DNA of 64,000 bases from a virus, in IMG/VR virus record IMGVR_UViG_2843860951_000002, positions 16,041 to 80,040 of that record, one strand, 5' to 3'. Position numbers and translations under genes: made by a program. A model generated the notes under the pieces. That model made no database searches. It saw only the letters and a program-made list of their open reading frames with translations, and was not told where the DNA came from. Shown here piece after piece: positions 15,349-31,489 of this stretch (position 1 is the stretch's first letter; each line of letters begins with the position of its first letter).

Positions 15349-15356
15349 TTCCGTGA
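15344..15356. repeat. Satellite att site, integrase side
   Basis: ACACCTTCCGTGA vs ACACATTCCGTGA at 28880-28892; identical core TTCCGTGA at 15349-15356. Confidence 0.88.
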
Positions 15357-15375
15357 GGGTGTTGTATCCTATATA

Positions 15376-15388
15376 AATCAATAACTTA
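15376..15388 (+). promoter_or_regulatory. IHF-consensus site in the left att arm
   Basis: AATCAATAACTTA matches WATCAANNNNTTR exactly; inverted copy at 28842-28854. Confidence 0.75.
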
Positions 15389-15415
15389 TGTATAAATGTC
15401 GCGGATTTGTTGCAC

Positions 15416-16621
15416 TCAGTCAGTCTCCGGCAGCATCAATGATGCAATCTTTTGTATTTCCGCTTGTTGCTTGTGCTCCGTAAGTAGTGGGTGAGCATAA
15501 CGCTGAAGGGTCATATCAAAAGATGCATGCCCTAGTAATTTAGCTACATCTGTAACTGGCATTCCTCCACCAACCATAGCACTGGCAGCAAAATGCCTTA
15601 GGGCATGGAAATGATAACTAGGTCCTTTTTTCTCGGTCTCTAATCCAGCCCTGATTAAAAGATTACGCCATACTTCATGCATGTCAGCACGTGTGATCCC
15701 TTTGCTTCCTGTTTTGTCATGCATTTTGGAACGTTGCGTCTTGCAGAACAGCAAATTTCGATTATCTGGGATTAGGTGATGATCTAACCAATCAGTAAAT
15801 AACGCGCGTACATGTTGTGGCATTGGCACATCTCTAAATCCGGCGCGAGTTTTGGGGCCCTTTAGTTCATTCAGCGAAGTAAGAGAGTTTCTGATGCGTA
15901 AAATTCCATTCTGTAAATCAACATTTTGAACAGTAATCCCTGATATCTCACCAAATCTGAGTCCACAAAACACAGCGGAATGCACAAAAATCCGTAATTT
16001 CAGCCATGAACGAATAGACACATTTGGCTGCCGTATATCTACTGTCTTTATAAGCTGTTGTATTTGTTCAATAGAAAAAGTCGCGATCTTGTCAGATTCA
16101 CCGCCACGCCAATCTTTCAGCACTGCATCGAAGGGCTGCCCTTTGGCATAACCTCGTTTGATACCGAACTCGCAAACTTGCCTAGCCGTATTTAAGACTT
16201 CGCGTATCGTAACTTTTTTATATCCAGCTTTTGCCATTTTTCTTGCAATGGCATCACCTTCGTTAAAACCTAGATCTTTTTGCAAAATATCGCCGACTAC
16301 GGGGAGTATATGATTACGAATATACCCCTCACGTCCACGTCTATACAGTTCGCCAACACCGTGCCCTGCCTGTGAGCGAAGAATTGCATCGTCTATGAAT
16401 TCTTGAGCAACTCGCTCCATAGTGGCACTTTTCTTATCTGAAACATGCCGCCCCTCTAAAACATCGACCACAATAGACGATCGAAAGAGATCAGCTTCCT
16501 TCTTGAGTTTGAACGATTTTTGCGTTCTATTCCCCATCTCATCGGTATAATCCACTACCCATGCACTACGATTTTTTCCGCCCGTAACCCAATTACGCTT
16601 TCTAACTGATGCTCGTGCCAC
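15416..16621 (-). CDS. int: Tyrosine integrase of the satellite
   Basis: N-terminal arm-binding region; catalytic set GLRFGE, PKT, HALRH, LLGH, QRY present. Confidence 0.95.
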   Translation of the reverse strand: MARASVRKRNWVTGGKNRSAWVVDYTDEMGNRTQKSFKLKKEADLFRSSIVVDVLEGRHVSDKKSATMERVAQEFIDDAILRSQAGHGVGELYRRGREGYIRNHILPVVGDILQKDLGFNEGDAIARKMAKAGYKKVTIREVLNTARQVCEFGIKRGYAKGQPFDAVLKDWRGGESDKIATFSIEQIQQLIKTVDIRQPNVSIRSWLKLRIFVHSAVFCGLRFGEISGITVQNVDLQNGILRIRNSLTSLNELKGPKTRAGFRDVPMPQHVRALFTDWLDHHLIPDNRNLLFCKTQRSKMHDKTGSKGITRADMHEVWRNLLIRAGLETEKKGPSYHFHALRHFAASAMVGGGMPVTDVAKLLGHASFDMTLQRYAHPLLTEHKQQAEIQKIASLMLPETD

Positions 16622-16626
16622 AACTT

Positions 16627-16920
16627 TTATCCTATCCTATTCATTGAATGCTGCCCCTGAGGAACTGCGTTAGACAGTTCCTCATCTATCGACGCACATC
16701 GGCGTTCCATTTCACCGGATAGCCATTCCAGAGCCATGCCCACAGCACTCATGTTGGGGCCGCTTTCTTCCGAACCAGTAAGCATGCCATTGCTCATGGC
16801 CTGAAGGCATATCCCGATGCAGGACAATTCGCTGGTTGCGTCCTGAATGACGCTCAGTCGGTCGGGTGTTGCCACGGGGCTTTTGCGCCGTTGTGGTGCA
16901 GAAGTGTGTTTCTGGCTCAT
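16627..16920 (-). CDS. Small helical-hairpin protein (paralog 4)
   Basis: ALEWLSGEMERRCASI motif; coupled ORF chain upstream of int. Confidence 0.6.
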   Translation of the reverse strand: MSQKHTSAPQRRKSPVATPDRLSVIQDATSELSCIGICLQAMSNGMLTGSEESGPNMSAVGMALEWLSGEMERRCASIDEELSNAVPQGQHSMNRIG

Positions 16921-17177
16921 GCCTTTACCCCTGTAAGTGCCAGAACATCCCTCGCCAGACTGGCTTCCATACTTCTGTCATCTTCGGACACAAGAAGAAC
17001 CAGACGGGCCTTACATTGCATATCCTTGATGTTCCGGGCTTTGGTGTTCGCAACAGCGCGACAGGCCTTCACGAAGCGACGGCTTTCCGTTTCTCCTTCC
17101 TTGAAATTATGAGCTTTCCAGCTACGGCGATCAGAATTGATGGCGGCGACCGTGGCGGCTTGTATTGGAGTGGTCAT
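16917..17177 (-). CDS. Small hypothetical protein
   Basis: Start MTTPIQ, overlapping neighbours at both ends. Confidence 0.6.
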   Translation of the reverse strand: MTTPIQAATVAAINSDRRSWKAHNFKEGETESRRFVKACRAVANTKARNIKDMQCKARLVLLVSEDDRSMEASLARDVLALTGVKA

Positions 17178-17440
17178 GCCACTTCCTCCGGCAACATCCA
17201 GCCTGGCGCATCTTTCACGCCTGTATGCGCTGCCAGCAGATCCAGATGATCCTGCAACCGGTGGCTCAACCAATGGAGCGCTTCGGGTTCGGTGATGTCG
17301 CATTCATCACAGCTCCATCCGGCTGTCACTTCCACTATAATGGCGGCCATCATCCGTGCGTCACGCAAAATGCAGCTTTGGATACGCATGTTTTTGAAGG
17401 TTTCCTGTTCGAAACCTGTGAGAGACATCTGGTTGCTCAT
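17174..17440 (-). CDS. Small helical-hairpin protein (paralog 3)
   Basis: ALHWLSHRLQDHLDLL motif. Confidence 0.6.
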   Translation of the reverse strand: MSNQMSLTGFEQETFKNMRIQSCILRDARMMAAIIVEVTAGWSCDECDITEPEALHWLSHRLQDHLDLLAAHTGVKDAPGWMLPEEVA

Positions 17441-17676
17441 TTCTGCGGCCTCCACGTCTCGCCGCCAGTAACTTCCTGCAGACGACTTAGCGTTGAGCAG
17501 AGTTCATCTGCCAGCCAGTGCCGGACTTCGGGAAAGACCACTTCATTTTCTGGATGGCTCAAGTCATGGATAGCGCGTGCAATTTGCTCGGCCTTATGAA
17601 GCAAAAGGTGCGGTTTCTTATAGTTGGCAAGATGATCGCGTTCGGCCTCTGTCATGGCTGTAGGTGTGTTGCTCAT
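17437..17676 (-). CDS. Small helical-hairpin protein (paralog 2)
   Basis: VRHWLADELCSTLSRL motif. Confidence 0.6.
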   Translation of the reverse strand: MSNTPTAMTEAERDHLANYKKPHLLLHKAEQIARAIHDLSHPENEVVFPEVRHWLADELCSTLSRLQEVTGGETWRPQK

Positions 17677-17882
17677 TATCGGGCACCTCGCGCCTTAAGG
17701 TCTTCCAGAATGGCGCCATCAAGTTCGTGGTGCAGACGCTCCACCCATTTGTGCAGCCATTCTAATGGCGGACGCTCTCCGCAAGCTTGTAAGCCATCCA
17801 ACACGTCAGACAGGCCCGCCAGCTCACACATGACGCTATGAGCTTTATGATTGAGAGAATTATCCGTTGGCATCTTGCTCAT
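17676..17882 (-). CDS. Small helical-hairpin protein (paralog 1)
   Basis: PLEWLHKWVERLHHEL motif. Confidence 0.6.
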   Translation of the reverse strand: MSKMPTDNSLNHKAHSVMCELAGLSDVLDGLQACGERPPLEWLHKWVERLHHELDGAILEDLKARGAR

Positions 17883-18058
17883 CGTACAGCCTCCAGCTTC
17901 TGGGCTGCGTGGCCAGTTACGACAGGATCAGGCATTGCTGCCCATATCAGGGCTAGCACAGCAAGAACTGGGAAAATCAAAGGTGGTAAATTTCCCCACA
18001 CAGGGGAAAAAATGAATGTACAGGCGCGAACCCGTACGCTATGGGCGTGTTTAGCCAT
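17879..18058 (-). CDS. 59-aa single-TM protein, missing from the ORF track
   Basis: MAKHAHSVRVRACTFIFSPVWGNLPPLIFPVLAVLALIWAAMPDPVVTGHAAQKLEAVR; GAGG RBS; ATGA overlap with 17882. Confidence 0.55.
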   Translation of the reverse strand: MAKHAHSVRVRACTFIFSPVWGNLPPLIFPVLAVLALIWAAMPDPVVTGHAAQKLEAVR

Positions 18059-18140
18059 TAGCTTGTGTCCTCAAGTTTGTGGTCAGGTCTGCTCTGGAAA
18101 TCTCACCTTCCAAAGCAGACCGTTTGGCTTTCCAACCAAA

Positions 18141-18159
18141 GTCAGTTATAAAGACTGAC
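18141..18159. promoter_or_regulatory. Candidate operator of the satellite XRE regulator
   Basis: GTCAGT-N7-ACTGAC inverted repeat in the divergent promoter region. Confidence 0.5.
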
Positions 18160-18186
18160 ATTGTATAAAGTCAAGTGTGAGAACTA

Positions 18187-18426
18187 ATGTCAGACATAAC
18201 ATCTGAGCAATGCCTCGGAGCCCGAGCAATGCTGCGTATGACACGCAATGAATTGGCAGAGGCATCAGAAGTAGCCGTTGCTACATTATCTGACTTTGAA
18301 TCTGGAAAGCGATCACCTCACCCCCGCACCCTTGGCGCCATTCGCTCCGCCTTAGAAGCCGCGGGTATTGAATTCATTACTAAAAATGACAAGGGAGTTG
18401 GATTACTATTGAAGTATAAAAAATAA
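18187..18426 (+). CDS. XRE-family HTH regulator (satellite repressor candidate)
   Basis: Q..GARAML.MTR.ELAEASEVAVATLSDFESGKRSP; divergent from the int-linked operon. Confidence 0.9.
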   Translation: MSDITSEQCLGARAMLRMTRNELAEASEVAVATLSDFESGKRSPHPRTLGAIRSALEAAGIEFITKNDKGVGLLLKYKK

Positions 18427-18530
18427 TACTTGTTTTTAATAAGATATATTCAGAATTTATCTATGGTTATAATTTTAAAACCGTTTTTAATCTCAATTGA
18501 TATAGACACAAAAATTTAGGATGCACTTTT

Positions 18531-19028
18531 ATGAACTTACGTCAGAAAATAAACGCCCAAGCCACACAAAAGGACGCAGAAGAGGCGTTTGAAAATAGTA
18601 GACCGGAAAGAGAACAGGCAATCCGTTCTCAAATGGATTTCTTAATAAAAAAAATTGAATCATTTTTAACTGAATATATTAGAGAAGGGCACGTAAAAAT
18701 AGATTTCTCTACTTCAATTTATAAAATGGATGGCACAGAACATACTGCGATGCCTTCGTTAATAATTAATTTCCCAAAGGAAGAACTTATTCTGGTGTTG
18801 GATAATGAGCACGGTGCTGCCTCATACAGACTCTCTGCAACACTACGCCACCAACCGTTCACGAGAAACCCGCGAAAAGTGAAATTTCTTTTCAAAAACA
18901 ATTCGTGGCTCCTAAACGGAAAGCTTGTTCCTTCTGATGGCGGCTATGCTTTTTTTCAGGACAATCACAACACTGTAGAGATTACCCCAGACAGCCTAAA
19001 TTGCGCTATTGCATCCATTCTAGCGTGA
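18531..19028 (+). CDS. AT-rich hypothetical cargo protein
   Basis: 165 aa, opposite strand to the structural genes, AT-rich. Confidence 0.65.
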   Translation: MNLRQKINAQATQKDAEEAFENSRPEREQAIRSQMDFLIKKIESFLTEYIREGHVKIDFSTSIYKMDGTEHTAMPSLIINFPKEELILVLDNEHGAASYRLSATLRHQPFTRNPRKVKFLFKNNSWLLNGKLVPSDGGYAFFQDNHNTVEITPDSLNCAIASILA

Positions 19029-19076
19029 AAACATAAATATGTGACGAGATTACCTATCTCGTCACATAACCCCAAT

Positions 19077-20420
19077 TTACCGAGCGAGGCTAAAGCGTTT
19101 GCTTGAAACCCAGCGAGCAGGCACAGGCCGGCTTTCAACCATAAGTTCCGTGAGCCCCCAAACCAAAGCGTCCATTCTGTCTGGGGAATTTCCTGATCCA
19201 GGCACCCATTCCACCATTTGATCTTCAAGGGTGGGAAAAGCGCCGACATGATGCACTTTTTCCTGCTCGTATAGTGCCATAATAGGTTCTGCCCTAACGA
19301 GCTTCCCCCGACTGGCATGCACGACTTTTACAGGTACAGTGCCGTCTTCACTGTGAATTGTTGCTGTAACCATCTCGCCGCCGAAATTGTTTTCAGCCAC
19401 AATTTTATCAGCGTTCCAGTGTTTATATGCCCGAACTGCTTGGCGAGCCCACCCGCCAGGGCTGTAACGGCCAGACAAATCCTCCAGAATGTATCCTTTG
19501 TTATCGGTACCGTAGGCGCAGACGATAATGCCAGTTTCATCAGACCTTTCATGAGATGATCCTGCTGGATCTATAGCAATAACGATTCGCCTGAATATCC
19601 GGTCTGATGATGGTTCAACACGAAGCGCATCCAGCATTTCACGAGTCCAGAGAGTTCCGCTTCCATCATCCAGTAATTCACCATCAAGTTCTTGCCTGCC
19701 CAACGTTGTGCCGCCGTATTTTTCCATAAGCTGGGCTAGAGCTGTACGGCTCAAATTCGCTGCATTATCCTGCGTCCGTGAACGTGTCACGACCGTCAAA
19801 TCACTCTTGGCCAGAGAACGAATAAGAGGAATCGGCTTTGGCGTAGTGGAGCACACAATTCTCGGTGCATCTCCCAGAGGACCATCTACGCGGATTGCCA
19901 TACTGAGCACGTCCCAAGCGTACTCACATTTTCCCCACGTTACGATTTCGTCGCACCATGCGCCATCAAGATTCAGGCCGCGTAATCGTTCCGGTTCTTC
20001 TGCTGAACATAGATGGCAAAGGGCTCCGTTTGGATACAACAATTTCCCTGTGGACGGCTCATAAGTAGGCCTGAACTCAGGCGGAGATATCGCCAGCATT
20101 CCACTAGGGCCTTCAATTTGAACACGGCGAAGGGCATTGGCCGTGGGGCCAACGATTGCCATTTCCTTCCGGCGCCCGCTTTCAATCTCACCACGAACCC
20201 ATTCAGCAGCGGTTCTCGTTTTCCCGCTGCCTCGTCCGCCGAGCAAGAGCCAGACAAACCAGTCACCTGCCGGTGGCAACTGGTCTGGACGAGCCCAGAA
20301 AGACCAGACGTAATGAAGCGCAGCCAGTTCTTCGGATGAAAGTGAACTGAGAACAGCACGGCGTTCATCAGGTGGCAGATCTGCCACCCGTGAAGCTAAA
20401 GATATTTTCAGATCGTCCAA
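19077..20420 (-). CDS. terL: Terminase large subunit of the satellite
   Basis: WARPDQLPP..W.VWLLLGGRGSGKT (Walker A), AWCDEI (Walker B), IAIDPA nuclease motif, DRMDALVW. Confidence 0.93.
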   Translation of the reverse strand: MDDLKISLASRVADLPPDERRAVLSSLSSEELAALHYVWSFWARPDQLPPAGDWFVWLLLGGRGSGKTRTAAEWVRGEIESGRRKEMAIVGPTANALRRVQIEGPSGMLAISPPEFRPTYEPSTGKLLYPNGALCHLCSAEEPERLRGLNLDGAWCDEIVTWGKCEYAWDVLSMAIRVDGPLGDAPRIVCSTTPKPIPLIRSLAKSDLTVVTRSRTQDNAANLSRTALAQLMEKYGGTTLGRQELDGELLDDGSGTLWTREMLDALRVEPSSDRIFRRIVIAIDPAGSSHERSDETGIIVCAYGTDNKGYILEDLSGRYSPGGWARQAVRAYKHWNADKIVAENNFGGEMVTATIHSEDGTVPVKVVHASRGKLVRAEPIMALYEQEKVHHVGAFPTLEDQMVEWVPGSGNSPDRMDALVWGLTELMVESRPVPARWVSSKRFSLAR

Positions 20421-20920
20421 GCGTCTCTCCGGCGTTCAATCTCTGCCATGATTTCTTTTTTGCGAGGCATCACTACTCGCCTGTCTTGTTCTGTCAGTTT
20501 GGCTGCTGGAAACAGAATAAGATTTCCAGGGTGAATAACTTCAAACGAAATTCCCTTGGCCATCAGCCTTTCGACTAGATCAGAAATACTTTCATGAGAT
20601 TGCTGCCGTTGGTCAGGGCTTGCATTCGTAAAGGTTGCATTCGCAAATACGATTGCAGCTAATTCGTTCTCAGGAGCATTTCGTACAGAAATAAAGAATA
20701 CTTCTGCTTCTTTCATTTCTTTATCATATTGCTCTTTAGCCATTTTTGCCCGAACAGCATCCCCTGAATGCTGCTCACGATAATAAATTCCCATCCTTTG
20801 CCGGAGAAGATTAAAACGTGGATCCAATACACGAAAGAGGTCGTGTCCACGTGCGCGCGCCTCTTTGTAGGCGATTGCTACCCTATCTTCGATTGAGAGA
20901 TTCGCATTTAGCTGCGTCAT
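20408..20920 (-). CDS. Hypothetical helical protein
   Basis: 170 aa, overlaps both neighbours. Confidence 0.6.
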   Translation of the reverse strand: MTQLNANLSIEDRVAIAYKEARARGHDLFRVLDPRFNLLRQRMGIYYREQHSGDAVRAKMAKEQYDKEMKEAEVFFISVRNAPENELAAIVFANATFTNASPDQRQQSHESISDLVERLMAKGISFEVIHPGNLILFPAAKLTEQDRRVVMPRKKEIMAEIERRRDAWTI

Positions 20921-21192
20921 TTTTTGCTACCCCATTTTTTTGCCCATTTTTGCAAAGACCGCGAATTAATGCTGTCGCGCATATTGCTCTGGATATCAGC
21001 GTTGATGCGCTTCAGTTGTTTTTTGCATTCTTCTTCGGATGCCATGCGTGCGTTGAATGTAAACGCATCTGGATACCTGTCCTGCAAACAAGAAACTGCT
21101 TGTTCAGGAGAGAGATTTTCATCAGCAATTTTTAGTAAAGTCATATCGTTCAGGCCCGCTTTGATAGCGGCCTGCTCTAATTTTGTGCACAT
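20917..21192 (-). CDS. Mini scaffold-like protein (homolog of the helper scaffold C-terminal domain)
   Basis: LEQAAIKAGLND..LLKIAD..AV..LQDRYPDAF-TFNARMASEEE vs helper AKALATKLGAVSPDDVVRLID..VMDAAKESRGYLF..PFNARKATPEE. Confidence 0.6.
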   Translation of the reverse strand: MCTKLEQAAIKAGLNDMTLLKIADENLSPEQAVSCLQDRYPDAFTFNARMASEEECKKQLKRINADIQSNMRDSINSRSLQKWAKKWGSKK

Positions 21193-21255
21193 GATTTTCT
21201 CTTATAAGTAAGATTATTACTCAAGGAATAGGCTTAATTAAAAGCTTACCCCTGC

Positions 21256-21384
21256 CAATCATCACCAGCCCGGAACACCCGGCACCCGTGGCGTTGAAAG
21301 TGGATCTGGCATAGCATTACTTGCCCGCATTTCGCGGTCATAATCCTTCCTAACCACACTTTGCACATGCCCGGCGATCTGCTT
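21256..21384. repeat. 129-bp perfect direct repeat, copy 2 (3' end of satellite TMP gene)
   Basis: Identical to 4391-4519; similarity extends 9 bp further with two synonymous changes. Confidence 0.97.
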
Positions 21385-23349
21385 GCCGTCTAGATTCACA
21401 GTTACATTTATAGGTGCAGTTCCAAATAACCCTCCTGAGTATTTACCTAAAAACCCATCAATACTTTTTAATGTTTCATTGTTTTTTTCTAAGCTAGCTT
21501 GGAGTTTGTTCGCCCAAGGTGAGAGCACATCCCACGCAGCAAGGCCTGCAGCTAGCGGCATAAATCCTTTAGACGCTCCTTTAGTAACTGTGCCGAATTT
21601 CGACATTCCACTCGGAAGGTATTTTTCAAGAGCGCCACCTACCCAATGGAAGAACCCCACAGCTAAGGCTGTAACGCCTAGATCTACGCCGGCTGTTGCT
21701 AGAGGGGGCACAACATTGGGGTGTTTTTCCGCCTGCCGAGCAGTAAAATTCAGAGTATTGGTTAAAAGTCCCAGTGCGGCCAAACCATCTTTGAAGGGTT
21801 TATCTCCTAAGACAGTTGTGAGGTTTTTAATCGAAGCCGTAAACGCATCAATTTGAACAGACGGAGAATTCTTCATAATACCAACAATATCAGCATGAGA
21901 AAGCTTGCCAGTAGCTGAAGAATCTCGCTCAGCAAGAAGGTAAGTTCGCAGAGTCTCAATCATACTCACGCCTCCTGGAATGCGAGAAGCAACCTGAGAA
22001 AGGCCTTTTGCTTCCATAGCTAATTTCATTTCCGGCGAAGCATCAGTAAATTTTTTCCCATACACCTTAGCCATATATTTATCGATTTTAGGTTTGAGCG
22101 TTTTCTCAATAAATTCATGCGGCGAGAAAATAATCTTAGCCATGTCGTCTGGATCAAGTGCCCCATCCAACATCATGAACTGGCCCATGCCCATTTTCCG
22201 CAAATATTTGTTCGATTTAGCATCACCACCACCATGGATGATTCCCATATCGATCAACATATTTGCTCCTGCCTCTGACATTCTCCCCGCCATAAATTGC
22301 TGAGAAAACCCCTGAAGGCCGGTTCCTGCCCTTGCGGTCCCCATCGACTGAAGTAGTGGAATAAACCATGGCAAATCCTCAGCTTTAAGGGTTGCACCCG
22401 CTGCGCCCGCTGAACGACTAAATTGCAGATATTTCTTGAAATCAACATTTCCCAAAGTGGCAACTTCAGCAGCTAATAACAGAGTACCTAGATTCCGGGC
22501 GCCCTCCACATCCACTTCTTGTTTGCCGGTTTTTTTATCTGTTTTAACTAGAGCTCCACGAAATTCGGCTAGCTGCATAAGGGACTCAAGCTGTGCTGCA
22601 TAATTACCAGACTCAGGATGGTAAGCCCCTGCGGCAATGCCAATTGGTAGGAATGTCGGTAACAAAGTACGAGCTTCAGAAGCACTTTGAGTTATCCGTT
22701 TAAGAACAGAGTATACTTCCAAGTTCCCCATGACATCTGAACCGGCAACTTTCTTTTGAAGGTCCCGAGCCAAAACAATCGCTTTGTCAGCATCCTTAGT
22801 ATCTCCGCCATCATTAGCAATAAGGCGCTGCCGCATTTGCTGAAGATCCATAGCTGGCCTCAAAGCAGTCTTCGCCATATCTCCATACATCTGAAGATCA
22901 AACCCAACTGCCATGGCTTTATTAGCCGCATGTCCAAAGGAGGTCTCTGGCCTCCCAGGGACCCTTCTTCCCTCAGGCTCGGGAGTTAAAGGGGGTTTGG
23001 GCGAAGGGAGAGGAACCTCACTCGGCACCGACACCTTAGGATTTATAATCTGTACTTTCCGCAATTCCTCAAGAGCCTTACGAGCAGAACCCGCAGAAGA
23101 CGTAATATTATCCAGAGACGCCGACATTGTTCTTGTCTGGCTATCAATTCCTCCCAGATTGATACCTTCAATTTCTTTTAACTGCCTGCCAAGGCGAGAA
23201 AGATTGGCACGCCCTAAGGCCTCGAGAAGACTCCTAAGATCATTCCCTGCATCTAATGTCATGCGGAATTGACGCGCGATCTCTTTCAGTAACGCCGGCG
23301 CATTTGAAACAAGTTTATACTCGCCTTGGACTGCATAGCTTGTCGTCAT
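21262..23349 (-). CDS. Tail tape measure protein of the satellite, 695 aa
   Basis: Follows chaperones and a gp10-like gene; N-terminus MTTSYAVQGEYKLV resembles helper MTVEAYKIGVSLV; last 43 aa identical to the helper TMP. Confidence 0.85.
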   Translation of the reverse strand: MTTSYAVQGEYKLVSNAPALLKEIARQFRMTLDAGNDLRSLLEALGRANLSRLGRQLKEIEGINLGGIDSQTRTMSASLDNITSSAGSARKALEELRKVQIINPKVSVPSEVPLPSPKPPLTPEPEGRRVPGRPETSFGHAANKAMAVGFDLQMYGDMAKTALRPAMDLQQMRQRLIANDGGDTKDADKAIVLARDLQKKVAGSDVMGNLEVYSVLKRITQSASEARTLLPTFLPIGIAAGAYHPESGNYAAQLESLMQLAEFRGALVKTDKKTGKQEVDVEGARNLGTLLLAAEVATLGNVDFKKYLQFSRSAGAAGATLKAEDLPWFIPLLQSMGTARAGTGLQGFSQQFMAGRMSEAGANMLIDMGIIHGGGDAKSNKYLRKMGMGQFMMLDGALDPDDMAKIIFSPHEFIEKTLKPKIDKYMAKVYGKKFTDASPEMKLAMEAKGLSQVASRIPGGVSMIETLRTYLLAERDSSATGKLSHADIVGIMKNSPSVQIDAFTASIKNLTTVLGDKPFKDGLAALGLLTNTLNFTARQAEKHPNVVPPLATAGVDLGVTALAVGFFHWVGGALEKYLPSGMSKFGTVTKGASKGFMPLAAGLAAWDVLSPWANKLQASLEKNNETLKSIDGFLGKYSGGLFGTAPINVTVNLDGKQIAGHVQSVVRKDYDREMRASNAMPDPLSTPRVPGVPGW

Positions 23350-23354
23350 TATTG

Positions 23355-23816
23355 TTACTCTTTCAGGCCAGCTATTTCTGTGATTTTTTTTGCAATTTTC
23401 TTTGTAATACTGTGTTCTTTGCGGAATAACGCTGTCGCGATAACTGGACGCGGAGGCTGTTTCATCGTTCCTTCTTCAAACCATTTTGCCACCACATCGG
23501 GATTCCCAATAATCACCTTTGACCCATCTTCAATATAAGATGAATAAAGCGCTCGCATCTCACCTGTTCGCAAGCCCGGTTCATTTTCGGAAAACCCGCG
23601 GGCTAACCTATCCTGTTTGGTACTGATAGCCAGTTCATCCCAAGGGGGAAGGTGACCCATATTTGCCCTTTGGTAGGTACCTACTTCTTCTTTGCAATCA
23701 GCAACAAGCAATATGGCGGCTTTTTCCAAGGCAATCAGTTGCGCTCGTTCTACCACCTCTGGAATTTTTTCCATTTGAGACAAAAAACTTTGTTCACTAA
23801 GCGGATTAGCCGCCAT
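23355..23816 (-). CDS. HK97 gp10-like tail component (satellite copy)
   Basis: ELA.STK..RLARGFSENEPGLRTGEMR, FEEGT.KQPPRP; homologous to 8039-8545; start at MAANP mirrors the helper overlap. Confidence 0.72.
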   Translation of the reverse strand: MAANPLSEQSFLSQMEKIPEVVERAQLIALEKAAILLVADCKEEVGTYQRANMGHLPPWDELAISTKQDRLARGFSENEPGLRTGEMRALYSSYIEDGSKVIIGNPDVVAKWFEEGTMKQPPRPVIATALFRKEHSITKKIAKKITEIAGLKE

Positions 23817-24006
23817 CACTATTGCGCCTATGAAAGCGCCCCTCTCCCAAACTCCATTCGATTTCACCACATGAATCAAGTTCTTTGTTCATAATGCATG
23901 CAGCTGAAATCATCTCGTCTGACCATGTATCAAGAACATGGATGGGGATCCCATTCCGGGCGAGATAAACCAACGCCCGGAAGTTAGGATCCCTTAGGAA
24001 TTTCCC
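23806..24006 (-). CDS. Satellite tail chaperone -1 frameshift extension, missing from the ORF track
   Basis: Slippery G GGA AAT (24000-24006); -1 frame GKFLRDPNFRALVYLARNGIPIHVLDTWSDEMISAACIMNKELDSCGEIEW..DGG* is homologous to the helper extension. Confidence 0.8.
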   Translation of the reverse strand, partial: GKFLRDPNFRALVYLARNGIPIHVLDTWSDEMISAACIMNKELDSCGEIEWSLGEGRFHRRNSDGG

Positions 24007-24425
24007 AGCTTTTCTTCTGGAGCCTCCTGCGTCTTGGCTTGACCTCCGGCTATATCTTCAACAAGCGCTCGCATGTAGGCTTGCTGTCCTATATTCCCGA
24101 TCTTATCCAAAAGATCGCAAATTTCACTTTTGCTCTCTGGGGTCATTTCAGGCTCGCCATCAAGGTCAACAACTGAAACCGCCATCATGACTGCAAAGCT
24201 CACATCGTCATTCTGGATGTTACCCCACATGTCTAAGGCCCTCACCCGTAAACTTAACGGGATAGATTTAAGGAATTGGATCTCCCTTCCTTTTTTATCC
24301 TCTTCAAATTTAACCGTAATACAAGAAGGTTTTTTTCCTCCAATTTTATACTTTGCAGGCCCTTCTTCCCACGAAAAGCCAGCGATTTTAGGGAGTTTAT
24401 CTTTGGAGGTCTTTTCTTTTGTCAT
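23994..24425 (-). CDS. Tail assembly chaperone (satellite copy)
   Basis: MMAVSVVDLDGEPEMTPESKSEICDLLDKIGNIG vs helper MVCSVTAIDGVPVQMPITKDEVKELANDIGNDG. Confidence 0.78.
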   Translation of the reverse strand: MTKEKTSKDKLPKIAGFSWEEGPAKYKIGGKKPSCITVKFEEDKKGREIQFLKSIPLSLRVRALDMWGNIQNDDVSFAVMMAVSVVDLDGEPEMTPESKSEICDLLDKIGNIGQQAYMRALVEDIAGGQAKTQEAPEEKLGNS

Positions 24426-24625
24426 TTGCGGGGCCCTGCTTTATCAGAATGATTATTAAAAATATTACATGACGGGGAAACTTCGTAAGCAGCTCCATAT
24501 GGGATAGGGATACCAGATATCCGGGCGCTGTTATTCTGGCACCCAATCACGATGTATGCCGCGCTACGGGCTGGCTCAATTGGCTCTGCTGTAGCAATAG
24601 TTTCAAGAGTGTCTCGTGAAAACAT
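24422..24625 (-). CDS. Small hypothetical protein
   Basis: GGAGG RBS, ATGA coupling to the chaperone gene. Confidence 0.55.
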   Translation of the reverse strand: MFSRDTLETIATAEPIEPARSAAYIVIGCQNNSARISGIPIPYGAAYEVSPSCNIFNNHSDKAGPRK

Positions 24626-24642
24626 TGTCCCTCCGTGGACAT

Positions 24643-24666
24643 AAAAAAACCCGCTGTAAAGCGGGA
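24643..24666 (-). terminator. Intrinsic terminator upstream of the satellite tail module
   Basis: CCCGC-TTTACA-GCGGG followed by a T7 run on the minus strand. Confidence 0.65.
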
Positions 24667-25095
24667 TTAAAAACTAACTTTTGCATCTGTTCGTTCAGGC
24701 GGATCTAGTAAATCCGCATAACAAAAAGTGCCCGGCAATATGGTGAAGGGGCCGCCAACATACGTGATTCCTTCTCCGCCTTTCAGGTCTGTTAAGTAGG
24801 CGACCTGCCCAGGGGGAATTGTCTTATTCCCTGTGCCAGTTTCAAAGCCATTTACTGGTGGAGATAGCTGAAGCTGCGGCGCTTCTGGATTTCCGGGGGT
24901 GTAAAATAGTGTCAGATTACCTTTACCACCATTACGGATTGCCATGACTGCGGCATCCTGTAGCTGATCAGGTACCGTGATAGTAGCTGTCCCGCAGATG
25001 GGAGCAGCGGGCACAGCCATCGCGCCACTTACGCCGCCTGGTGCATCTGGATAAGCACTTGGATTTTGTGATGTCGTGATAAACAATCTTTTCAT
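24667..25095 (-). CDS. Hypothetical Pro/Gly-rich, beta-rich protein
   Basis: Start MKRLF with AAGGA RBS; no family recognised. Confidence 0.6.
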   Translation of the reverse strand: MKRLFITTSQNPSAYPDAPGGVSGAMAVPAAPICGTATITVPDQLQDAAVMAIRNGGKGNLTLFYTPGNPEAPQLQLSPPVNGFETGTGNKTIPPGQVAYLTDLKGGEGITYVGGPFTILPGTFCYADLLDPPERTDAKVSF

Positions 25096-25106
25096 ATCGT
25101 TTCCTT

Positions 25107-25769
25107 TTATTCGCTGGACAAAACTCCAGATACCGCTTTGGCTGTCCACTTCCCTCCACGGGGAGTGCGGACAGATCGCTGGTCAAGTTCGTTCGCGATA
25201 GTTTGCAAACTCATTCCTTGGCCGCGCAATTCCTTGATCAGAGGGCGAACAGAAGCCCGGAACTCTTCTTTTTTCCGTCTCACAGCTGCTGTGCCGGCTT
25301 TCTGATCCACTTTTGGGCCGCCTCTATAACCACCTAGCTTAACGCCACGTGCCTTGGCAGCAGCCAACGCCTCTTTCGTGCGCTGGGATATGGCTTCCCG
25401 TTCTTGTTGGGCCACAAGCGCCATAATCCCTATAGTCATCTGATTGGCGCCGGGCATATCTGCGGCGACGAAATTGATGCCTGCGTCTTTTAAGCCGATA
25501 AGGAATGCAGCGTTACGAGAAAGCCGGTCGATTTTGGCTATGACAAGCGTTGCACCTGTCAGACGACATTCTTTCATGGCCAATTCTAATTGAGGACGGG
25601 CATCATTCTTCCCAGTTTCAATTTCAGTGAATTCGGCCAGCAATTCCCAATCACCGCCATTTAGGAAATTTCGGACAGTGTGCTGCTGTGCCTCTATTCC
25701 AAGACCAGATTTTCCTTGTTTTTCAGTGCTTACGCGGTAGTAGGCGACAAATTTTCCGTTCATGTTCAA
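25107..25769 (-). CDS. Serine recombinase (resolvase/invertase family)
   Basis: FVAYYRVSTEKQ, DRLSR, ERE.IS.RTK.AL..AKARG, C-terminal helical DNA-binding region. Confidence 0.93.
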   Translation of the reverse strand: MNMNGKFVAYYRVSTEKQGKSGLGIEAQQHTVRNFLNGGDWELLAEFTEIETGKNDARPQLELAMKECRLTGATLVIAKIDRLSRNAAFLIGLKDAGINFVAADMPGANQMTIGIMALVAQQEREAISQRTKEALAAAKARGVKLGGYRGGPKVDQKAGTAAVRRKKEEFRASVRPLIKELRGQGMSLQTIANELDQRSVRTPRGGKWTAKAVSGVLSSE

Positions 25770-25798
25770 ATCCAGACGACGAAGGTTGTCTGATTTTG

Positions 25799-26227
25799 CT
25801 ACGGACTTTTCTCACTATTTGCAATCGTTTTTTTTGTCTCATTTTCTGGCTCAAGATCAATTACTGGCTTCTGTTGCGGTTTGAATGCTTCCAGCATCTG
25901 ACTGATCTTTTCTACCATGTGTGTACCAGAGACTTCCTGCTGACCATCCTTTGGCGTTGCATCCGCTGTAACCTGCATGGAAAGCCTTGGCCGACAATAT
26001 GGAAGTGCTGCTTGATAAGCTTTCACGCGCAATTCTAAGGGCGTTTCTGGACTGTCAGCAATTTCCAGCAGCGAAAGAAGCGGATCTCGGCCTTCTTCCA
26101 TAATCTGCACCAATGTCTGCCGCGCTTTAACCATAACTTTTTGTGGTCGTTTGCTCTGCCACTCAGCACCTGATTTACGGCCAGCGCCTTTACGCTTTCC
26201 TCCTGAGCCGCTCGAGGTTCCTGGCAT
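25799..26227 (-). CDS. terS: Putative terminase small subunit of the satellite
   Basis: GGKRKGAGRK..., DPL..LLEIA....PLELRVKAYQAALPYCRPRL, a motif I associate with small packaging subunits. Confidence 0.55.
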   Translation of the reverse strand: MPGTSSGSGGKRKGAGRKSGAEWQSKRPQKVMVKARQTLVQIMEEGRDPLLSLLEIADSPETPLELRVKAYQAALPYCRPRLSMQVTADATPKDGQQEVSGTHMVEKISQMLEAFKPQQKPVIDLEPENETKKTIANSEKSP

Positions 26228-26417
26228 TCAATACTCCTATTTCCCCCGATCTTGGGGTTTCACGCACGCGCTGCGCGCAGAAGCCAGAATGCTCCTACGC
26301 CAACGGGCGGGGCAAGCGGGGCTATGCACAGCCTCGCGCCTGATTTGATTATAACGGGGCTGGCAGTTGGCAACGCATGCCCAATTCACCTATGCAGAAT
26401 TCCTAAACACTGGAAAC

Positions 26418-26535
26418 TTTGCACGGAACTGCACGGAACCCGCACGGGTGAGTGATCCGCACGCACGGATCATCTCCCCTATAGGGTTCCGAGATCCATG
26501 CGCGCGCGGATTTGCACGGAACCTGCACAGATCAT
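26418..26535. repeat. Candidate satellite replication origin
   Basis: GCACGG at 26421, 26431, 26442, 26463 and 26514; hairpin TGATCCG-N6-CGGATCA; palindrome CCCTATAGGG; directly after the helicase gene. Confidence 0.6.
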
Positions 26536-27740
26536 TCCTCCCCTCCTCCATCAGTCCAAACTACACAGGAAGGCTTTCCATCGGGGGTTCGTATTCCCTG
26601 AGCAGTACCTCGGTTATCACGCCTAAATGTCGCCACCTCATATCCCTCGTGGAGTAGATCGTTCAGAACCTTCTTCTGCCCATCAGCCGTGCTTACGCCA
26701 CAGTCAGTCAAAAGCTTCCTGATAGACCGTTGATCTTTTGACAATTTAGGGCTCCAAGGGCCTACAGGACTTCCTTTCGCGACCCCTGCTTCAATAAGGT
26801 TCATTTGCTCCAATGAGACGCTATCCTGCGGAGGCATCCATGGCTTCATGACTGCCACTCGGTCACCATTATTTAGTTCGTAAGACTGCCGTTCAAACCA
26901 TTCTTCCTTGCCGATCGGAGCCGCATTGATCTTGGCCCCATCGACGCGAGAGAAGAACCGCCTATGGTCAGCCGGTAACCCAAAGTTTTGTGCTTCTGCT
27001 TCTGACATAACACTAACCGTCAACACTACGCGGGCGGCACCAACAACGGCAGATGCACCTCGGGACACGTCAGGATCTCCTGGAATGGCAGCTACTCCTT
27101 TCCGTGTATGATGCAAGAGAACGACGGCCATATCATACCGCACAGCCAAGGCACGGAAATGAGCCATTACCTTGCGAACTGCAGTATTGTCGTTTTCTTC
27201 TGCTTCATGCAATTCAACCAACGGATCCAGCATCAACACATCGGGCCTGCGCTTTTGGATTTCAGCTTCCATTTGTTTCATTGCCGGAGTGTCAAACATC
27301 TCTTTGCTATCTTTCTCCTGCTCAAGCAACGTTCCGATAGTCTCCGTGCCTACGCGGGCAACATACCCATTCAAATCTGCCGGGCACTTACCCATGAACC
27401 GCAAAGCAGCAGAGAACCGCCGACGCTGTTCGTCACGATCATCCTCAACATTGTAAGTCATGACCTTCATGCGCTTATCTGGGGTCAATCGCCCATAGCT
27501 CTCTCCTAGTGCAAGAGACGCTGCCCATCCCACCATTAGGCTTGACTTCCCCGAAGCAGGTGCACCCACCACAACAGTGACAGCACCACGCAGGAGGATC
27601 CCAGAAGCTACCCAAGGGCGGGAGGGAATATCGTTTTCGTCCCAGTTCTGATCATCTATTACAAGAGGGAGAACAGGCGTATGCTGCTTATTCTGCGCTT
27701 CAATTACGCTTTGGTGGACAATTTCTCCGATTTCATTCAT
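26532..27740 (-). CDS. RepA-like replicative helicase (AAA_25 type)
   Basis: Walker A GAPASGKS, NVED, LMLDPL, LLHHTRKG, SRGASAVVGAAR. Confidence 0.88.
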   Translation of the reverse strand: MNEIGEIVHQSVIEAQNKQHTPVLPLVIDDQNWDENDIPSRPWVASGILLRGAVTVVVGAPASGKSSLMVGWAASLALGESYGRLTPDKRMKVMTYNVEDDRDEQRRRFSAALRFMGKCPADLNGYVARVGTETIGTLLEQEKDSKEMFDTPAMKQMEAEIQKRRPDVLMLDPLVELHEAEENDNTAVRKVMAHFRALAVRYDMAVVLLHHTRKGVAAIPGDPDVSRGASAVVGAARVVLTVSVMSEAEAQNFGLPADHRRFFSRVDGAKINAAPIGKEEWFERQSYELNNGDRVAVMKPWMPPQDSVSLEQMNLIEAGVAKGSPVGPWSPKLSKDQRSIRKLLTDCGVSTADGQKKVLNDLLHEGYEVATFRRDNRGTAQGIRTPDGKPSCVVWTDGGGEE

Positions 27741-28519
27741 CCACCCATCCTTGCCCTCAACGCAGATGCGATGGTCTTTTCAACTTCAGTTGCACTTAGG
27801 CCTGCTTCTAACCCAGCAGCCGCCATGACAACTGCAATTTCATTGGCTGATAGATAACCTTCGGCAATGAACCTTCCTAATGCAAAGGTTTCGGCATTAA
27901 GAGTTTGATTTCTTAACCCATTGCCTGCGGTAGCAACCTGCCGAGCAGCTGAACGAAGAGCAGATTGGACATAGCGATTTGCGTTTTCTATGCCGTGTTG
28001 CAATCTTTCAAGTTTAGGTTTGGGAGGTGGCGAAGGTGTTGCAAGTTCTACTAGCCATGCCGGCCATTGCTGGATGCGAGCACGCTCAACTATCTCTAGC
28101 CCAGCCGCAGGCCACCAAATGATATATCCTCCATCAGCCCTAACATCCACGCCCGGCGCTATCCGGCCGGCACTGTTCCTCATGCCTTCTCGGTGCCTGA
28201 ACAATAAATGAAGCCCCCCAGAACGGGTGCGATTAATCCGGGTGCCGGTCAGTCGGGCGCAGTGTTCTTGGTAAAAATCGTCACCACCCTTTCCCCAGTC
28301 CAGATCAAGTGCATCAAACCCAGACACAGAACCTGTAACTGCTCCAATAAGAGCCCCTGGATGAGCGCGCCAGAGCATGGCAACAGTTTCCGGGCATTTG
28401 CTCGACAATTTAGTCCATTTGCAAGTAGGTCGCTTCTGCTCATCACAGGGGAATACCTGTACCCCGCAGCGCGCTAATTGTTGGGCATAGACCACAACAG
28501 AACCATTTGCCGTAGTCAT
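27737..28519 (-). CDS. Bifunctional primase/polymerase (Prim-Pol) with primase C-terminal region
   Basis: VFPC..KRP, ALDLD, RTRSGGLHLLF, GVDVRADGGYI, GLRNQTLN..F.LGR; start MTTANG by ATGA overlap. Confidence 0.88.
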   Translation of the reverse strand: MTTANGSVVVYAQQLARCGVQVFPCDEQKRPTCKWTKLSSKCPETVAMLWRAHPGALIGAVTGSVSGFDALDLDWGKGGDDFYQEHCARLTGTRINRTRSGGLHLLFRHREGMRNSAGRIAPGVDVRADGGYIIWWPAAGLEIVERARIQQWPAWLVELATPSPPPKPKLERLQHGIENANRYVQSALRSAARQVATAGNGLRNQTLNAETFALGRFIAEGYLSANEIAVVMAAAGLEAGLSATEVEKTIASALRARMGG

Positions 28520-28716
28520 GACTGCCCCGCTTCGCAGTTTTTCAACCACTGGCGCAGCGTTTCAGGTCGCGCACAAATAGTCTTCCCAATACGAAAGCAT
28601 GGGATACGCCCCTGCTCATTCCAATAGGCAACTTGACGAGGAGATGTGCCGAGGAACTCCGCAATCGCTCTCGTCCCTGCTAGAATTTCGACAGAGAAAG
28701 TAACACTATTTTTCAT
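28516..28716 (-). CDS. AlpA/excisionase-like winged-HTH protein
   Basis: G.RAIAEFLG.SPRQV.YW...GRIP.FRIGKTICAR...L.QWL; first gene inside the right att. Confidence 0.8.
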   Translation of the reverse strand: MKNSVTFSVEILAGTRAIAEFLGTSPRQVAYWNEQGRIPCFRIGKTICARPETLRQWLKNCEAGQS

Positions 28717-28841
28717 GTCGCAGTTTGCCTGATATTTGTCGCATGCATGCAGCACGGAAATGCCGTGCATTGTCGTAACTCCTTGGTTTTCATCGTTCTT
28801 ATCGAACAGAGCGAATAGGCAAGAAATCTCACGACATTTTT

Positions 28842-28854
28842 TAAGTTATTGATT
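28842..28854 (-). promoter_or_regulatory. IHF-consensus site in the right att arm
   Basis: TAAGTTATTGATT, reverse complement of 15376-15388. Confidence 0.75.
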
Positions 28855-28879
28855 TTGTTATAATTATTGAAGGATATAA

Positions 28880-28892
28880 ACACATTCCGTGA
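28880..28892. repeat. Satellite att site, xis side
   Basis: ACACATTCCGTGA; core TTCCGTGA at 28885-28892. Confidence 0.88.
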
Positions 28893-29279: not shown

Positions 29280-29924
29280 TTAGGAGGGTGTAAAAAGTTT
29301 GGGGTTAAGCCCTGCTGCCTGCGCTTTGGCTGCCACTTCTTCTGGCGTTGCCTTACGCGCATTAAACGGTTCAGCCTTACCCGGCTTAGGGTCTGGCGCT
29401 GTTTTGGTGGTGCCGGTTTTGGTGCCGGGTTCAACGAGTTGAGTGAACAGATAGCCACGGCTTTCTTTCGCTGCGTCCATCACAGCATCCAGCCCTTCGA
29501 TCTGCCCATTCTCGCCCATCTTGACCTCAGAAAGATCAATCAGCCGCACCACATCATCGGGAGAAACAGCGCCCAGCTTGGTTGCCAGCGCCTTGGCTTC
29601 TGCCCGAATGACGGCCTGATCCGCTTGCGCCTTGGACTGCGCGACTGCCGTTTGCGCCTCAGTCTTCGAAGCTTCAACGGCCTGCTGTGCCTCAGCCAGC
29701 TTACCTTCAAAGTCGGACTTCTGCTGCGCAAGCTGCCCTTTGAAACCATCACGGGCTTTAATGGCCGCATCACGCTCAGCGCGCACTGCATCCCCATCTT
29801 CCCGCGCGGCCTTAAGTTCATTGCGCAAAGTCACAATGTCAGCACGCGCACGCGCCAATTCACGCGGCGTGTTAGGGTCAGCACCACCGTTCCCAGCATC
29901 AGCCGGGTTTGCATTGTCGGACAT
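29280..29924 (-). CDS. Capsid scaffolding protein
   Basis: Ala-rich coiled coil plus C-terminal D.VRLIDLS.VK..E.G.I.GLDA.M...KE.R.YLF; lies between portal and capsid genes. Confidence 0.8.
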   Translation of the reverse strand: MSDNANPADAGNGGADPNTPRELARARADIVTLRNELKAAREDGDAVRAERDAAIKARDGFKGQLAQQKSDFEGKLAEAQQAVEASKTEAQTAVAQSKAQADQAVIRAEAKALATKLGAVSPDDVVRLIDLSEVKMGENGQIEGLDAVMDAAKESRGYLFTQLVEPGTKTGTTKTAPDPKPGKAEPFNARKATPEEVAAKAQAAGLNPKLFTPS

Positions 29925-29971: not shown

Positions 29972-31489
29972 TCAGGCCGTAACCTGATGCGTCTCTGTTT
30001 TCCCAACACCTGCCGCCGTGCGCACCGCTTTGGTCGCGGGTGCGTCTGCATTTCGAACAGCTTGTATTGTTGGGTCTTGAAGTTCTGCCTGCACCCGCAC
30101 CCACTCAGTGGCCGGGTCAGCACAACCAGTCTTGGCGGCGAATATCGAACATGCGCTTTCGTTCGAAAGGATACCGCCCTTTACCGCTGTCACAAGAGCC
30201 TGTGACAACTGCAAAATCTCACCATCAGTTGCGGGAAAATACGGCGGCCATTCCAACGCCAGACCAGCATCATCTAGCGTGACACGCTCGCCATCAACCT
30301 GAATACCACCCTCAATTGCCAGAGAGAAATCGCAGATCATCCGATACAGCGAAAGTAAAGCACCTTCGCCATAAGACAGACGCATCCGGTCCGCGAGCCA
30401 CACGAGTGACTGACACATCATCTCCATAGCCCGGCCAGATTGCGCAGCACTGATCTTATCAGCATGCGCCCTGTTGCCGTGCAGGATTTCCAGAACCAGC
30501 GCACGCAATTCGCGCCAGTATTCCATCACCGTGCCAGCAGAACTGCCGTTGATCTCCAGCATTTTCGCGCTGGCTTTCTCGGGCAGAACAATCGCCGTTG
30601 CAGAGCCACCTTCGCTGGCTGGTGCATCACCACCACCCGCAGGGTCGCCACCTACACCAGTAATCACCAGCTTAGGGTCAGAGCAGTATTTCAGACCACG
30701 TCCAACCTGCGAAAGCTGGTAATCACCCTCAATAACCGTATCAATCGCACGCTCAAAAGTGCATGGCCCATCTGGATCCTGCCCTGGCGGCGCTAGGTTT
30801 CGCACCCACACAATCGGCACAAAGCCCAAGCCGTGCGGCGGACCGCTGCGCTCAGTATCCACTTCCGGGTCAGCATCACTGGTTGCTAGCCATGGCTTGT
30901 AAACGCGGCTTTCAGTTCGCGTCCATTCACGGCGATACCAGTAATCGACAGCGTCGCTTCCCTCTGGAATAGCATACCCCAGAGCACGCACCTGACGGCC
31001 CTTGATAAGATACTGGCTGACAACCTGCGCCAGATCACCCTTGGCGTCCCATTCAGGCTCCAGATATGGCGTATCCAGCACAGAAACCGACAAAGCCCCG
31101 TCAACCGCCTCAACCAGCAATGCGGCAGAACCGATAGAGCCTTTGAGAACGGCTTCCATTAGAACCGCAGGCAACTGGCACTCTCGTGTAATGCTGGAAA
31201 GTGCTTCTGCTGTGTCAGGGCTATCGCATTTCAGTGTTGGCCAATGCGTTTCACCGAATGTCAGGCTGGCCGCATCCTCAACCACAACTGTGCATAGATG
31301 CGAACGCACAGACGGCCTGCGCTGGGAGAGCGGGATATACTCATCGTTATTCCACTCTTTCGAAAACGGATACGGCAGCGCGTCATACATCGTGCCGTCA
31401 CGCACAGCAGACAGACGCAGCAACCGCTGGGCGCGTGCAGATACCTGCTGCGGCACCAGAATTGTTTCCTGTAATTCCTGCCAGTCCAT
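29972..31489 (-). CDS. Portal protein
   Basis: 505 aa right after TerL; HGLGFVPIVWVRN, LKYCSDPKLVI, SAAQSGRAMEM. Confidence 0.82.
   Translation of the reverse strand: MDWQELQETILVPQQVSARAQRLLRLSAVRDGTMYDALPYPFSKEWNNDEYIPLSQRRPSVRSHLCTVVVEDAASLTFGETHWPTLKCDSPDTAEALSSITRECQLPAVLMEAVLKGSIGSAALLVEAVDGALSVSVLDTPYLEPEWDAKGDLAQVVSQYLIKGRQVRALGYAIPEGSDAVDYWYRREWTRTESRVYKPWLATSDADPEVDTERSGPPHGLGFVPIVWVRNLAPPGQDPDGPCTFERAIDTVIEGDYQLSQVGRGLKYCSDPKLVITGVGGDPAGGGDAPASEGGSATAIVLPEKASAKMLEINGSSAGTVMEYWRELRALVLEILHGNRAHADKISAAQSGRAMEMMCQSLVWLADRMRLSYGEGALLSLYRMICDFSLAIEGGIQVDGERVTLDDAGLALEWPPYFPATDGEILQLSQALVTAVKGGILSNESACSIFAAKTGCADPATEWVRVQAELQDPTIQAVRNADAPATKAVRTAAGVGKTETHQVTA

Follow-up and report, generated by a model that had tools for sequence, protein, structure and literature searches.

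A satellite embedded in the capsid gene of a myovirus prophage of acetic acid bacteria carries its own predicted tail-core cassette

Introduction

Why would a phage satellite in which no tube, sheath, or baseplate gene is recognized carry its own genes for the core of a tail? This question is raised by a 13.5-kb element in a window of viral DNA, by which we mean the whole 64,000-nt stretch analyzed here, corresponding to bases 16041-80040 of an 81-kb IMG/VR provirus (IMGVR_UViG_2843860951_000002). The element lies inside the major capsid gene of a myovirus prophage, its helper, and three of its consecutive genes (21262-24425) resemble helper genes for a tail assembly chaperone, a tail completion protein (TCP), and a tape measure protein (TMP). 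A preliminary description had called this block a chaperone / gp10-like / tape measure cassette carried by a satellite, and had proposed hybrid tails in which helper tube and sheath are built on a different, shorter TMP. Here, we examine the identity of the three genes, the nature of the element, and the origin of the TMP C-terminus. We put at roughly 60% the probability that the cassette is a complete tail-core module with which the satellite builds chimeric tails on the baseplate, tube, and sheath of its helper.

Results

The cassette and its helper counterparts comprise the following features, with gene products as predicted.

23994-24425, minus strand: satellite tail assembly chaperone, gpG-like, 143 aa (phrog_20383, E 5e-7)
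24000-24006, minus strand: in-frame slippery heptamer of the satellite, G_GGA_AAT, 3 nt ahead of the chaperone stop
23806-24000, minus strand: satellite -1 extension, gpT-like, 64 codons, overlapping the TCP ATGGCG start at 23816
23355-23816, minus strand: satellite TCP of the HK97 gp10 / lambda gpZ / 80alpha gp51 family, 153 aa
21262-23349, minus strand: satellite TMP, 695 aa, positioned after chaperone and TCP
21256-21407: 152-nt stretch, 96% identical to helper 4391-4542, spanning the final ~48 codons of the TMP gene with its stop and the 6 nt that follow
8714-9037, minus strand: helper tail assembly chaperone, 107 aa (phrog_20383 match)
8717-8723, minus strand: helper slippery heptamer A_AAA_AAC, with a -1 extension of 62 codons to 8529
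8039-8545, minus strand: helper TCP, 168 aa, homologue of the satellite middle gene
4397-6718, minus strand: helper TMP, 773 aa, with a Pro/Gly-rich linker of ~150 aa at residues ~84-235

As the preliminary description had claimed, all three satellite genes aligned with these helper genes far beyond chance. Identity was 26% for the chaperones (BLASTP, E 7e-7) and 36% for the middle genes (E 2e-25). For the TMPs, it was 23% in the bodies (292 aa aligned, E 9e-6) and 94% in the final 48 aa (E 3e-26). The satellite also keeps the helper gene order, the helper differing by a plus-strand moron (6802-7866, P63C/Ant-like) that separates its TCP gene from its TMP gene. In both copies, the end of the frameshifted reading frame overlaps the ATGGCG start of the TCP gene (23806/23816 in the satellite and 8529/8545 in the helper).

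The satellite and helper chaperones both match phrog_20383, a family of unknown function, and the chaperone had no match in Pfam or NCBIfam. Its assignment instead draws on its context and its frameshift signal. A slippery heptamer followed by a -1 extension is a hallmark of tail assembly chaperones of the lambda gpG/gpGT type. An in-frame heptamer of the form X_XXY_YYZ with an extension of 59-65 aa was present in all nine cassettes compared (three from satellites and six from phages; related loci are referred to here by L numbers), and the heptamers equivalent to that of the window satellite read GGGAAAC or AAAAAAC. The satellite extension was homologous to helper 8529-8717 and to the extensions of L007, L008, L009, L052, L053, and L054, and the satellite and helper extensions share the motif P.F...L..NG.P..V...WSD....AAC. 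In the helper, L009, L053, and L054, the chaperone gene stands between the tube and TMP genes. On these signatures, the first cassette gene is a predicted tail assembly chaperone made in two forms through a -1 slip.

For the middle gene, homologues back the ATG at 23816 as the start, and the open reading frame (ORF) listing reaches a TTG at 23879. An AlphaFold2 model built from eight sequences was too poor to use (predicted local distance difference test, pLDDT, 52), and we used a model from a 55-sequence alignment (pLDDT 86.7). This model matched PDB 9mu2 chain P with a Z-score of 10.3 and a root-mean-square deviation of 2.5 Å over 108 of 109 residues; the next match reached a Z-score of 4.9, and chain P was also the top Foldseek match. 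The model displays the TCP fold, with a long bent N-terminal helix, a loop carrying a beta-hairpin, and a C-terminal helix. By its modelled residues (7-115), chain P corresponds to 80alpha gp51, the equivalent of lambda gpZ, HK97 gp10, and SPP1 gp16.1, and the satellite protein is predicted to share the gp51 fold over its whole length. TIGR01725 aligned to the TCP over profile positions 5-116 of 120 with 23.3 bits (E 7.8e-5; cut-off 30.8). The protein passed neither TIGR01725 nor PF04883, and a Pfam scan returned no match. A profile search collected 273 relatives, some of them named HK97 gp10 family or carrying PF05069. By modelled fold and named homologues, the middle gene is thus a remote TCP of the HK97 gp10 / gp51 family, and its earlier "gp10-like" label was apt.

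This assignment also bears on the company the gene keeps. In the 80alpha/SaPI1 neck, a single gp51 sits inside the tail, where it caps the end of the DNA and binds the N-termini of three TMP copies; at their other end, the TMPs bind the tail tip protein through their C-termini (bioRxiv 10.1101/2024.12.10.627806). The TCP appears to travel with the TMP because it caps the TMP N-terminus. Unlike genes for gp51-type TCPs, which belong to the neck module, this one lies between the chaperone and TMP genes, and it is exchanged with the TMP as a unit.

The large cassette gene is likewise a predicted TMP, according to its position and its relatives. Homologues 40-52% identical to it occur in complete myoviruses (L009 and L011, both from Komagataeibacter oboediens, and L054), where they follow the sheath, tube, chaperone, and TCP genes. 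A tblastn comparison with annotated TMPs of Burkholderia phages gave a weak match (26% identical, E 5e-6), and the language-model features of a protein atlas placed the satellite protein at 0.97 to PF10145 TMP clusters. A PDB sequence search with a TMP profile was empty.

The element that carries the cassette is bounded as follows.

15344-28892, minus strand: whole satellite, 13.5 kb, inside the helper major capsid gene, with a 13-bp repeat at both ends
15344-15356 and 28880-28892: 13-bp core TCACGGAA(G/T)GTGT, one mismatch between the copies
14269-15381, minus strand: helper major capsid gene, 3' part, 14 kb beyond the scaffold gene
29280-29924, minus strand: helper scaffold

In the helper relative L006, whose proteins are 84-100% identical to those of the helper (at least 93% for most genes), the capsid gene is uninterrupted, encodes 464 aa, and aligns across the insertion junction. 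Bases 1-850 of L006 align to window 29729-28880, and bases 838-2500 align to 15356-13694. Both L006 and another helper relative, L004, lack the satellite. In addition, a contig from a fermentation metagenome contains the empty site, with 15348 joined to 28885 (a skip of 13,536 bp), and the same sample holds the element. The precise insertion in the helper capsid gene, and with it the placement of the cassette on a satellite, is therefore confirmed.

All satellite genes point the same way in the interval from the scaffold gene to the 3' part of the capsid gene, and they include genes for an HTH_17 protein, a primase-polymerase, an AAA_25 helicase, a serine recombinase, the cassette, TerL, and an integrase. 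TerL is complete (Terminase_6N and 6C), and the integrase, at the downstream end of the element, is of the tyrosine type (PF00589). In PHROG and Pfam scans of the satellite ORFs, none was recognized as a gene for capsid, portal, tube, sheath, or baseplate, which justifies the satellite label; six small or medium ORFs stayed without assignment. A megablast of the region against phage and E. coli collections gave no match. The 13.5-kb element is a genuine satellite embedded in its helper. We rejected the reading of it as a defective prophage because it is compact, conserved, and precisely bounded; it also contains no pseudogenes.

The most striking feature of the cassette is where its DNA still resembles that of the helper. 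The 152-nt TMP 3' end is the sole DNA similarity between the window satellite and its helper. A second pair, from Acetobacter ghanensis (satellite L007), has the same arrangement: its satellite and helper TMPs are 25% identical overall, and the only DNA that the two share is 67 nt, 98.5% identical, at the TMP 3' end. There, the last 22 TMP residues are identical save for the terminal one, and the peptide is unlike that of the window. In both of these independent pairs, then, the satellite TMP ends in the C-terminal peptide of its own helper (last 22-48 residues). The TMPs of L008 and L009 carry an S-type ending, taken to be ancestral.

The same boundary appears among the helpers. L052 and L053 share 94% DNA identity from head to tube and have unrelated chaperone, TCP, and TMP bodies; their similarity stops after the tube gene and returns over the final 168 nt of the TMP gene. 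Complete myoviruses also carry this type of cassette, and helpers exchange it in one piece, the downstream breakpoint falling within the last ~50 TMP codons. Breakpoints at the TMP 3' end imply that the last ~25-50 TMP residues genetically belong to the baseplate side. Based on these junctions, we infer that the C-terminal peptide would dock the TMP on the helper hub and that satellites would gain it by recombination with the resident helper. The pattern further suggests co-adaptation of chaperone, TCP, and TMP body as a single unit, which fits the clasping of TMP N-termini by the TCP in the 80alpha structure.

The cassette was found in four satellites (the window's, L007, L008, and L056), with TMPs of 686-701 aa. 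L007, too, has the helper scaffold gene on one side and the 3' part of the capsid gene on the other, and L008 is a 15.4-kb metagenome contig. Wherever synonymous divergence (dS) was unsaturated, the ratio of nonsynonymous to synonymous substitution rates (dN/dS) for the cassette was 0.04-0.14, and contigs from four metagenome studies contained no indels within 21262-24425. The cassette evolves under purifying selection.

Its history differs from that of the surrounding genes. Between the window and L007/L008, the satellite backbone was 70-86% identical (helicase 81%), compared with 52% for the TMP, 50% for the TCP, and 24% for the chaperone. The TMP and TCP of L008 were instead 89-94% identical to those of a complete K. 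oboediens phage, and the GC content of the window cassette was 45-47% vs. 49-54% for its neighbours. A scan of species-representative genomes with the TMP profile found two complete phages only. Among 401 genomes of the bacterial family of L011, distant helicase relatives lay mostly in other kinds of element without the cassette, and we did not count these as the same satellite family. An IMG/VR scan with the satellite helicase alignment found nothing, with poorly chosen search patterns.

We also considered what the cassette would mean for tail length. The two TMP lengths (695 aa vs. 773 aa) are as the preliminary description gave them. TMP length sets tail length, at about 0.15 nm per residue in lambda, and the predicted shortening of 11-12 nm is arithmetically sound (78 aa × 0.15 nm = 11.7 nm). 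However, the Pro/Gly-rich stretch spans ~150 aa in the helper TMP (84-235) and ~40 aa in the satellite TMP (96-135). The helical bodies are thus not longer on the helper side in the way that the difference in total length would imply. Moreover, the A. ghanensis pair is reversed, with a satellite TMP of 686 aa exceeding a helper TMP of 646 aa. We thus regard satellite tails shorter by 11-12 nm as doubtful. Given the reversed A. ghanensis pair and the linker in which the difference in the window lies, we rejected the notion that satellite TMPs are, as a rule, the shorter ones.

The cassette may belong to a larger transcription unit, whose other features are as follows.

24650-24665, minus strand: terminator-like hairpin followed by T7, upstream of the cassette
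24422-24625, minus strand: ORF of 67 aa, overlapping the chaperone start; no family match
20917-21192, minus strand: ORF of 91 aa, after the satellite TMP; kept in L007 and L008 (46% identical) and in L034
20408-20920, minus strand: ORF of 170 aa, overlapping the satellite terL start
19038-19068: terminator-like hairpin

Pattern matching suggests one late operon between the two hairpins, comprising the 67-aa ORF, chaperone, TCP, TMP, 91-aa ORF, 170-aa ORF, and terL. L008 has a small ORF in the corresponding position, to which the 67-aa ORF showed no homology. An earlier proposal that the 91-aa ORF is a mini-scaffold resembling the helper scaffold failed, as BLASTP produced no alignment between them at E up to 100. 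By its position, the 170-aa ORF could be the satellite small terminase subunit; its protein-atlas leads were weak (0.84, clusters with TubC_N). Metagenome variants carried in-frame 15-nt deletions in this ORF at 20620-20644, whereas the tail cassette was free of indels.

The helper is a myovirus with its late genes on the minus strand, and its baseplate genes (Phage_base_V, Baseplate_J, and fibres) lie just upstream of the window, where proteins of 307 aa and 398 aa are encoded as well. Its remaining structural and packaging genes are as follows.

32969-33451, minus strand: helper terS
31489-33024, minus strand: helper terL
29972-31489, minus strand: helper portal
9469-10956, minus strand: helper sheath
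9034-9465, minus strand: helper tube

Helpers have a moron hot spot between their TCP and TMP genes, occupied at 6802-7866 (plus strand) in the window, at 6339-12340 in L053, and at 7447-13279 in L052. In these two relatives, the morons include BrnT/BrnA, Arc, ANT, HicAB, and BstA_C. The satellite cassette has no moron insert at this place. Directly after the helper TMP gene, 3198-4337 (minus strand) encodes a 379-aa protein with a hydrophobic N-terminus that is kept in helper relatives. It had no family match and could be a moron, an exclusion factor, or a lysis factor. Finally, the helper early region contains a direct repeat of 61 nt (50819-50879 and 52281-52341, 92% identical, 1462 nt apart).

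Discussion

Our preferred explanation is that the cassette provides the core of a chimeric tail for satellite particles. After induction, the satellite chaperones would hold the satellite TMP, which would dock on the helper baseplate hub through its helper-derived C-terminal peptide of ~25-45 residues. Helper tube and sheath would then polymerize around it, and the satellite TCP would close the top of the tail, capping the TMP N-terminus at the head end. The hybrid-tail proposal of the preliminary description thus stands in its main part, supported by the identity of the cassette, the satellite nature of the element, purifying selection, and the precedent of the PLE satellites discussed below; the specific shortening of 11-12 nm does not. 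Incorporation into virions, an effect on tail length, and an effect on the helper are points that we infer only from sequence.

Several considerations weigh against chimeric tails. The satellite TMP matched no curated TMP family (PF10145, PF06791, PF20155, and PF09718, with Pfam, PHROG, and NCBIfam covered). Because the helper retains its own intact cassette, tails could strictly be made without the satellite copy, and the helper may carry a second TCP in its neck module. Among distant backbone relatives, L034 and L049 do without the cassette, and in L034, the homologues of the flanking ORFs stand adjacent. Together with the mosaic identities described above, such relatives mark the cassette as an accessory module that phages and satellites exchange. 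As for the C-terminal identity, it could stem from a neutral recombination hot spot where modules join, and not from selection for docking. L052 has a stray 69-nt copy of the TMP 3' end (94% identical) in the moron cluster between its TCP and TMP genes (10338-10406), indicating that the site is recombinogenic and suggesting repeated recombination there. In addition, a search for a helper with the TMP C-terminus of L008 found none, leaving only two satellite-helper pairs, with no third, for comparison.

Other roles for the cassette have to be weighed against this background. Identical TMP ends in helper and satellite imply competition for the same partner, and the cassette could mainly sabotage the helper, with the satellite TMP occupying helper hubs and its structural role being secondary or absent. 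Interference with tail assembly by satellites and PICIs is documented for Rta in PLE11 (PMC12987554) and for the Tai systems (PMC11364771). Still, a decoy needs no frameshifted chaperone, TCP, and full-length TMP of its own, all under purifying selection in four elements, and in PLEs, the satellite TMP is structural (PMC12987554). Sabotage as the primary function therefore seems unlikely to us. The idea that the cassette is a passenger or relic, left by recombination with a helper-like phage or part of a decaying prophage and without a role, draws on its lower GC content and on its greater divergence between satellites relative to the helicase (TMP 52% and chaperone 24% vs. 81%), which point to acquisition or replacement. 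Yet its ORFs, frameshift site, and translationally coupled starts are intact in four elements, its low dN/dS is accompanied by a lack of frameshifting variants in the four metagenome studies, and the element around it is compact and free of pseudogenes. We disfavour this idea strongly and consider it very improbable.

A private tail core might also serve to avoid a TMP-directed block raised by an exclusion or defence protein of the helper or host, or by an inhibitor of the satellite itself. With an attachment site in the helper capsid gene, the satellite presumably enters recipients in which the helper is already resident, and integration within that gene was seen in two species. As an arms race predicts, chaperone, TCP, and TMP body are the most variable tail part in helpers with 94% identity elsewhere. 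The helper TMP is also flanked by moron clusters, and PLE11 evades its inhibitor Rta through its own TMP (PMC12987554). However, no exclusion or Rta-like gene was identified, and the 67-aa ORF next to the cassette lacks conservation. Escape from a block would also explain the existence of the cassette rather than its mechanism, and it is compatible with chimeric tails. We accord it a small probability, and we are similarly sceptical of its extension, in which the private TMP body and TCP with a borrowed C-terminus would be an entry device for invading helper lysogens, which may exclude particles that inject through the helper TMP.

Chimeric tails of this kind have a close precedent. In 2026, PLE satellites of Vibrio cholerae (PLE1, PLE4, and PLE11) were shown to form chimeric tails on phage ICP1, into which they put their own chaperone, TMP, and baseplate hub protein (Nature; PMC12987554). 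Deletion of the PLE tmp gene lowered transduction by 96-99.9%, and the PLE11 TMP, 95 aa shorter, gave tails that were 10 nm shorter, as predicted and then shown (PMC12987554). Our satellite resembles the PLEs in having a myovirus helper and in combining its own chaperone and TMP (~20% identical to those of the helper in PLEs) with a lack of tube, sheath, and baseplate genes. It differs in belonging to an unrelated satellite family and host, and its third protein is a TCP, whereas PLEs encode the baseplate hub BhuB. With no hub encoded, compatibility with the hub seems to come here from the helper-derived C-terminal peptide of the TMP, unlike in PLEs. ICP1 is also virulent, whereas the helper here is a prophage in which the satellite is embedded, and the Rta-like inhibitor of PLE11 has no counterpart that we found in the window satellite.

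The location of the element has its own precedent in HE-PICIs, helper-embedded satellites of enterobacteria that sit in the late genes of lambdoid helper prophages, including the major capsid gene (2023, PMC10111431). Our satellite is similar in its insertion in the major capsid gene, its 13-bp core, and the shared minus-strand orientation of satellite and helper late genes, and the A. ghanensis satellite has the same placement. By contrast, HE-PICIs are laid out as int, alpA, and pri-rep, and the integrase here is at the downstream end; the HE-PICI paper does not mention a tape measure (PMC10111431). Satellite TMPs are known elsewhere, too. EPIP satellites of Mycolicibacterium carry a TMP and have tails that differ in length from those of the helper, being longer and variable; a major capsid protein appears among their listed genes, although the abstract states that capsid proteins are absent, and head-tail adaptors are present (PMC12822802). 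Putative tmp genes are likewise marked in PLE-like elements and some cf-PICIs in the PLE report (Extended Data Fig. 10, PMC12987554). For EPIPs, PLE-like elements, and cf-PICIs, the accessible sections of these two sources describe no frameshifted chaperone, TCP, or helper-matching C-terminus (PMC12822802, PMC12987554).

Tail-core piracy by satellites is therefore an already known kind of parasitism, represented by PLEs and EPIPs. What is new here is that a TCP stands in for a hub protein, that the satellite is embedded in a helper of Acetobacteraceae, and that its TMP C-terminus matches that of the resident helper. The last 22-48 TMP residues offer a short candidate determinant for the contact between TMP and baseplate hub. 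If the entry-device idea were true, it could explain why the cassette of chaperone, TCP, and TMP body is the fastest-swapping tail part in this phage group. Together, these findings would widen tail-core piracy to include acetic acid bacteria from food fermentations, as well as a satellite residing inside the capsid gene of its own helper.

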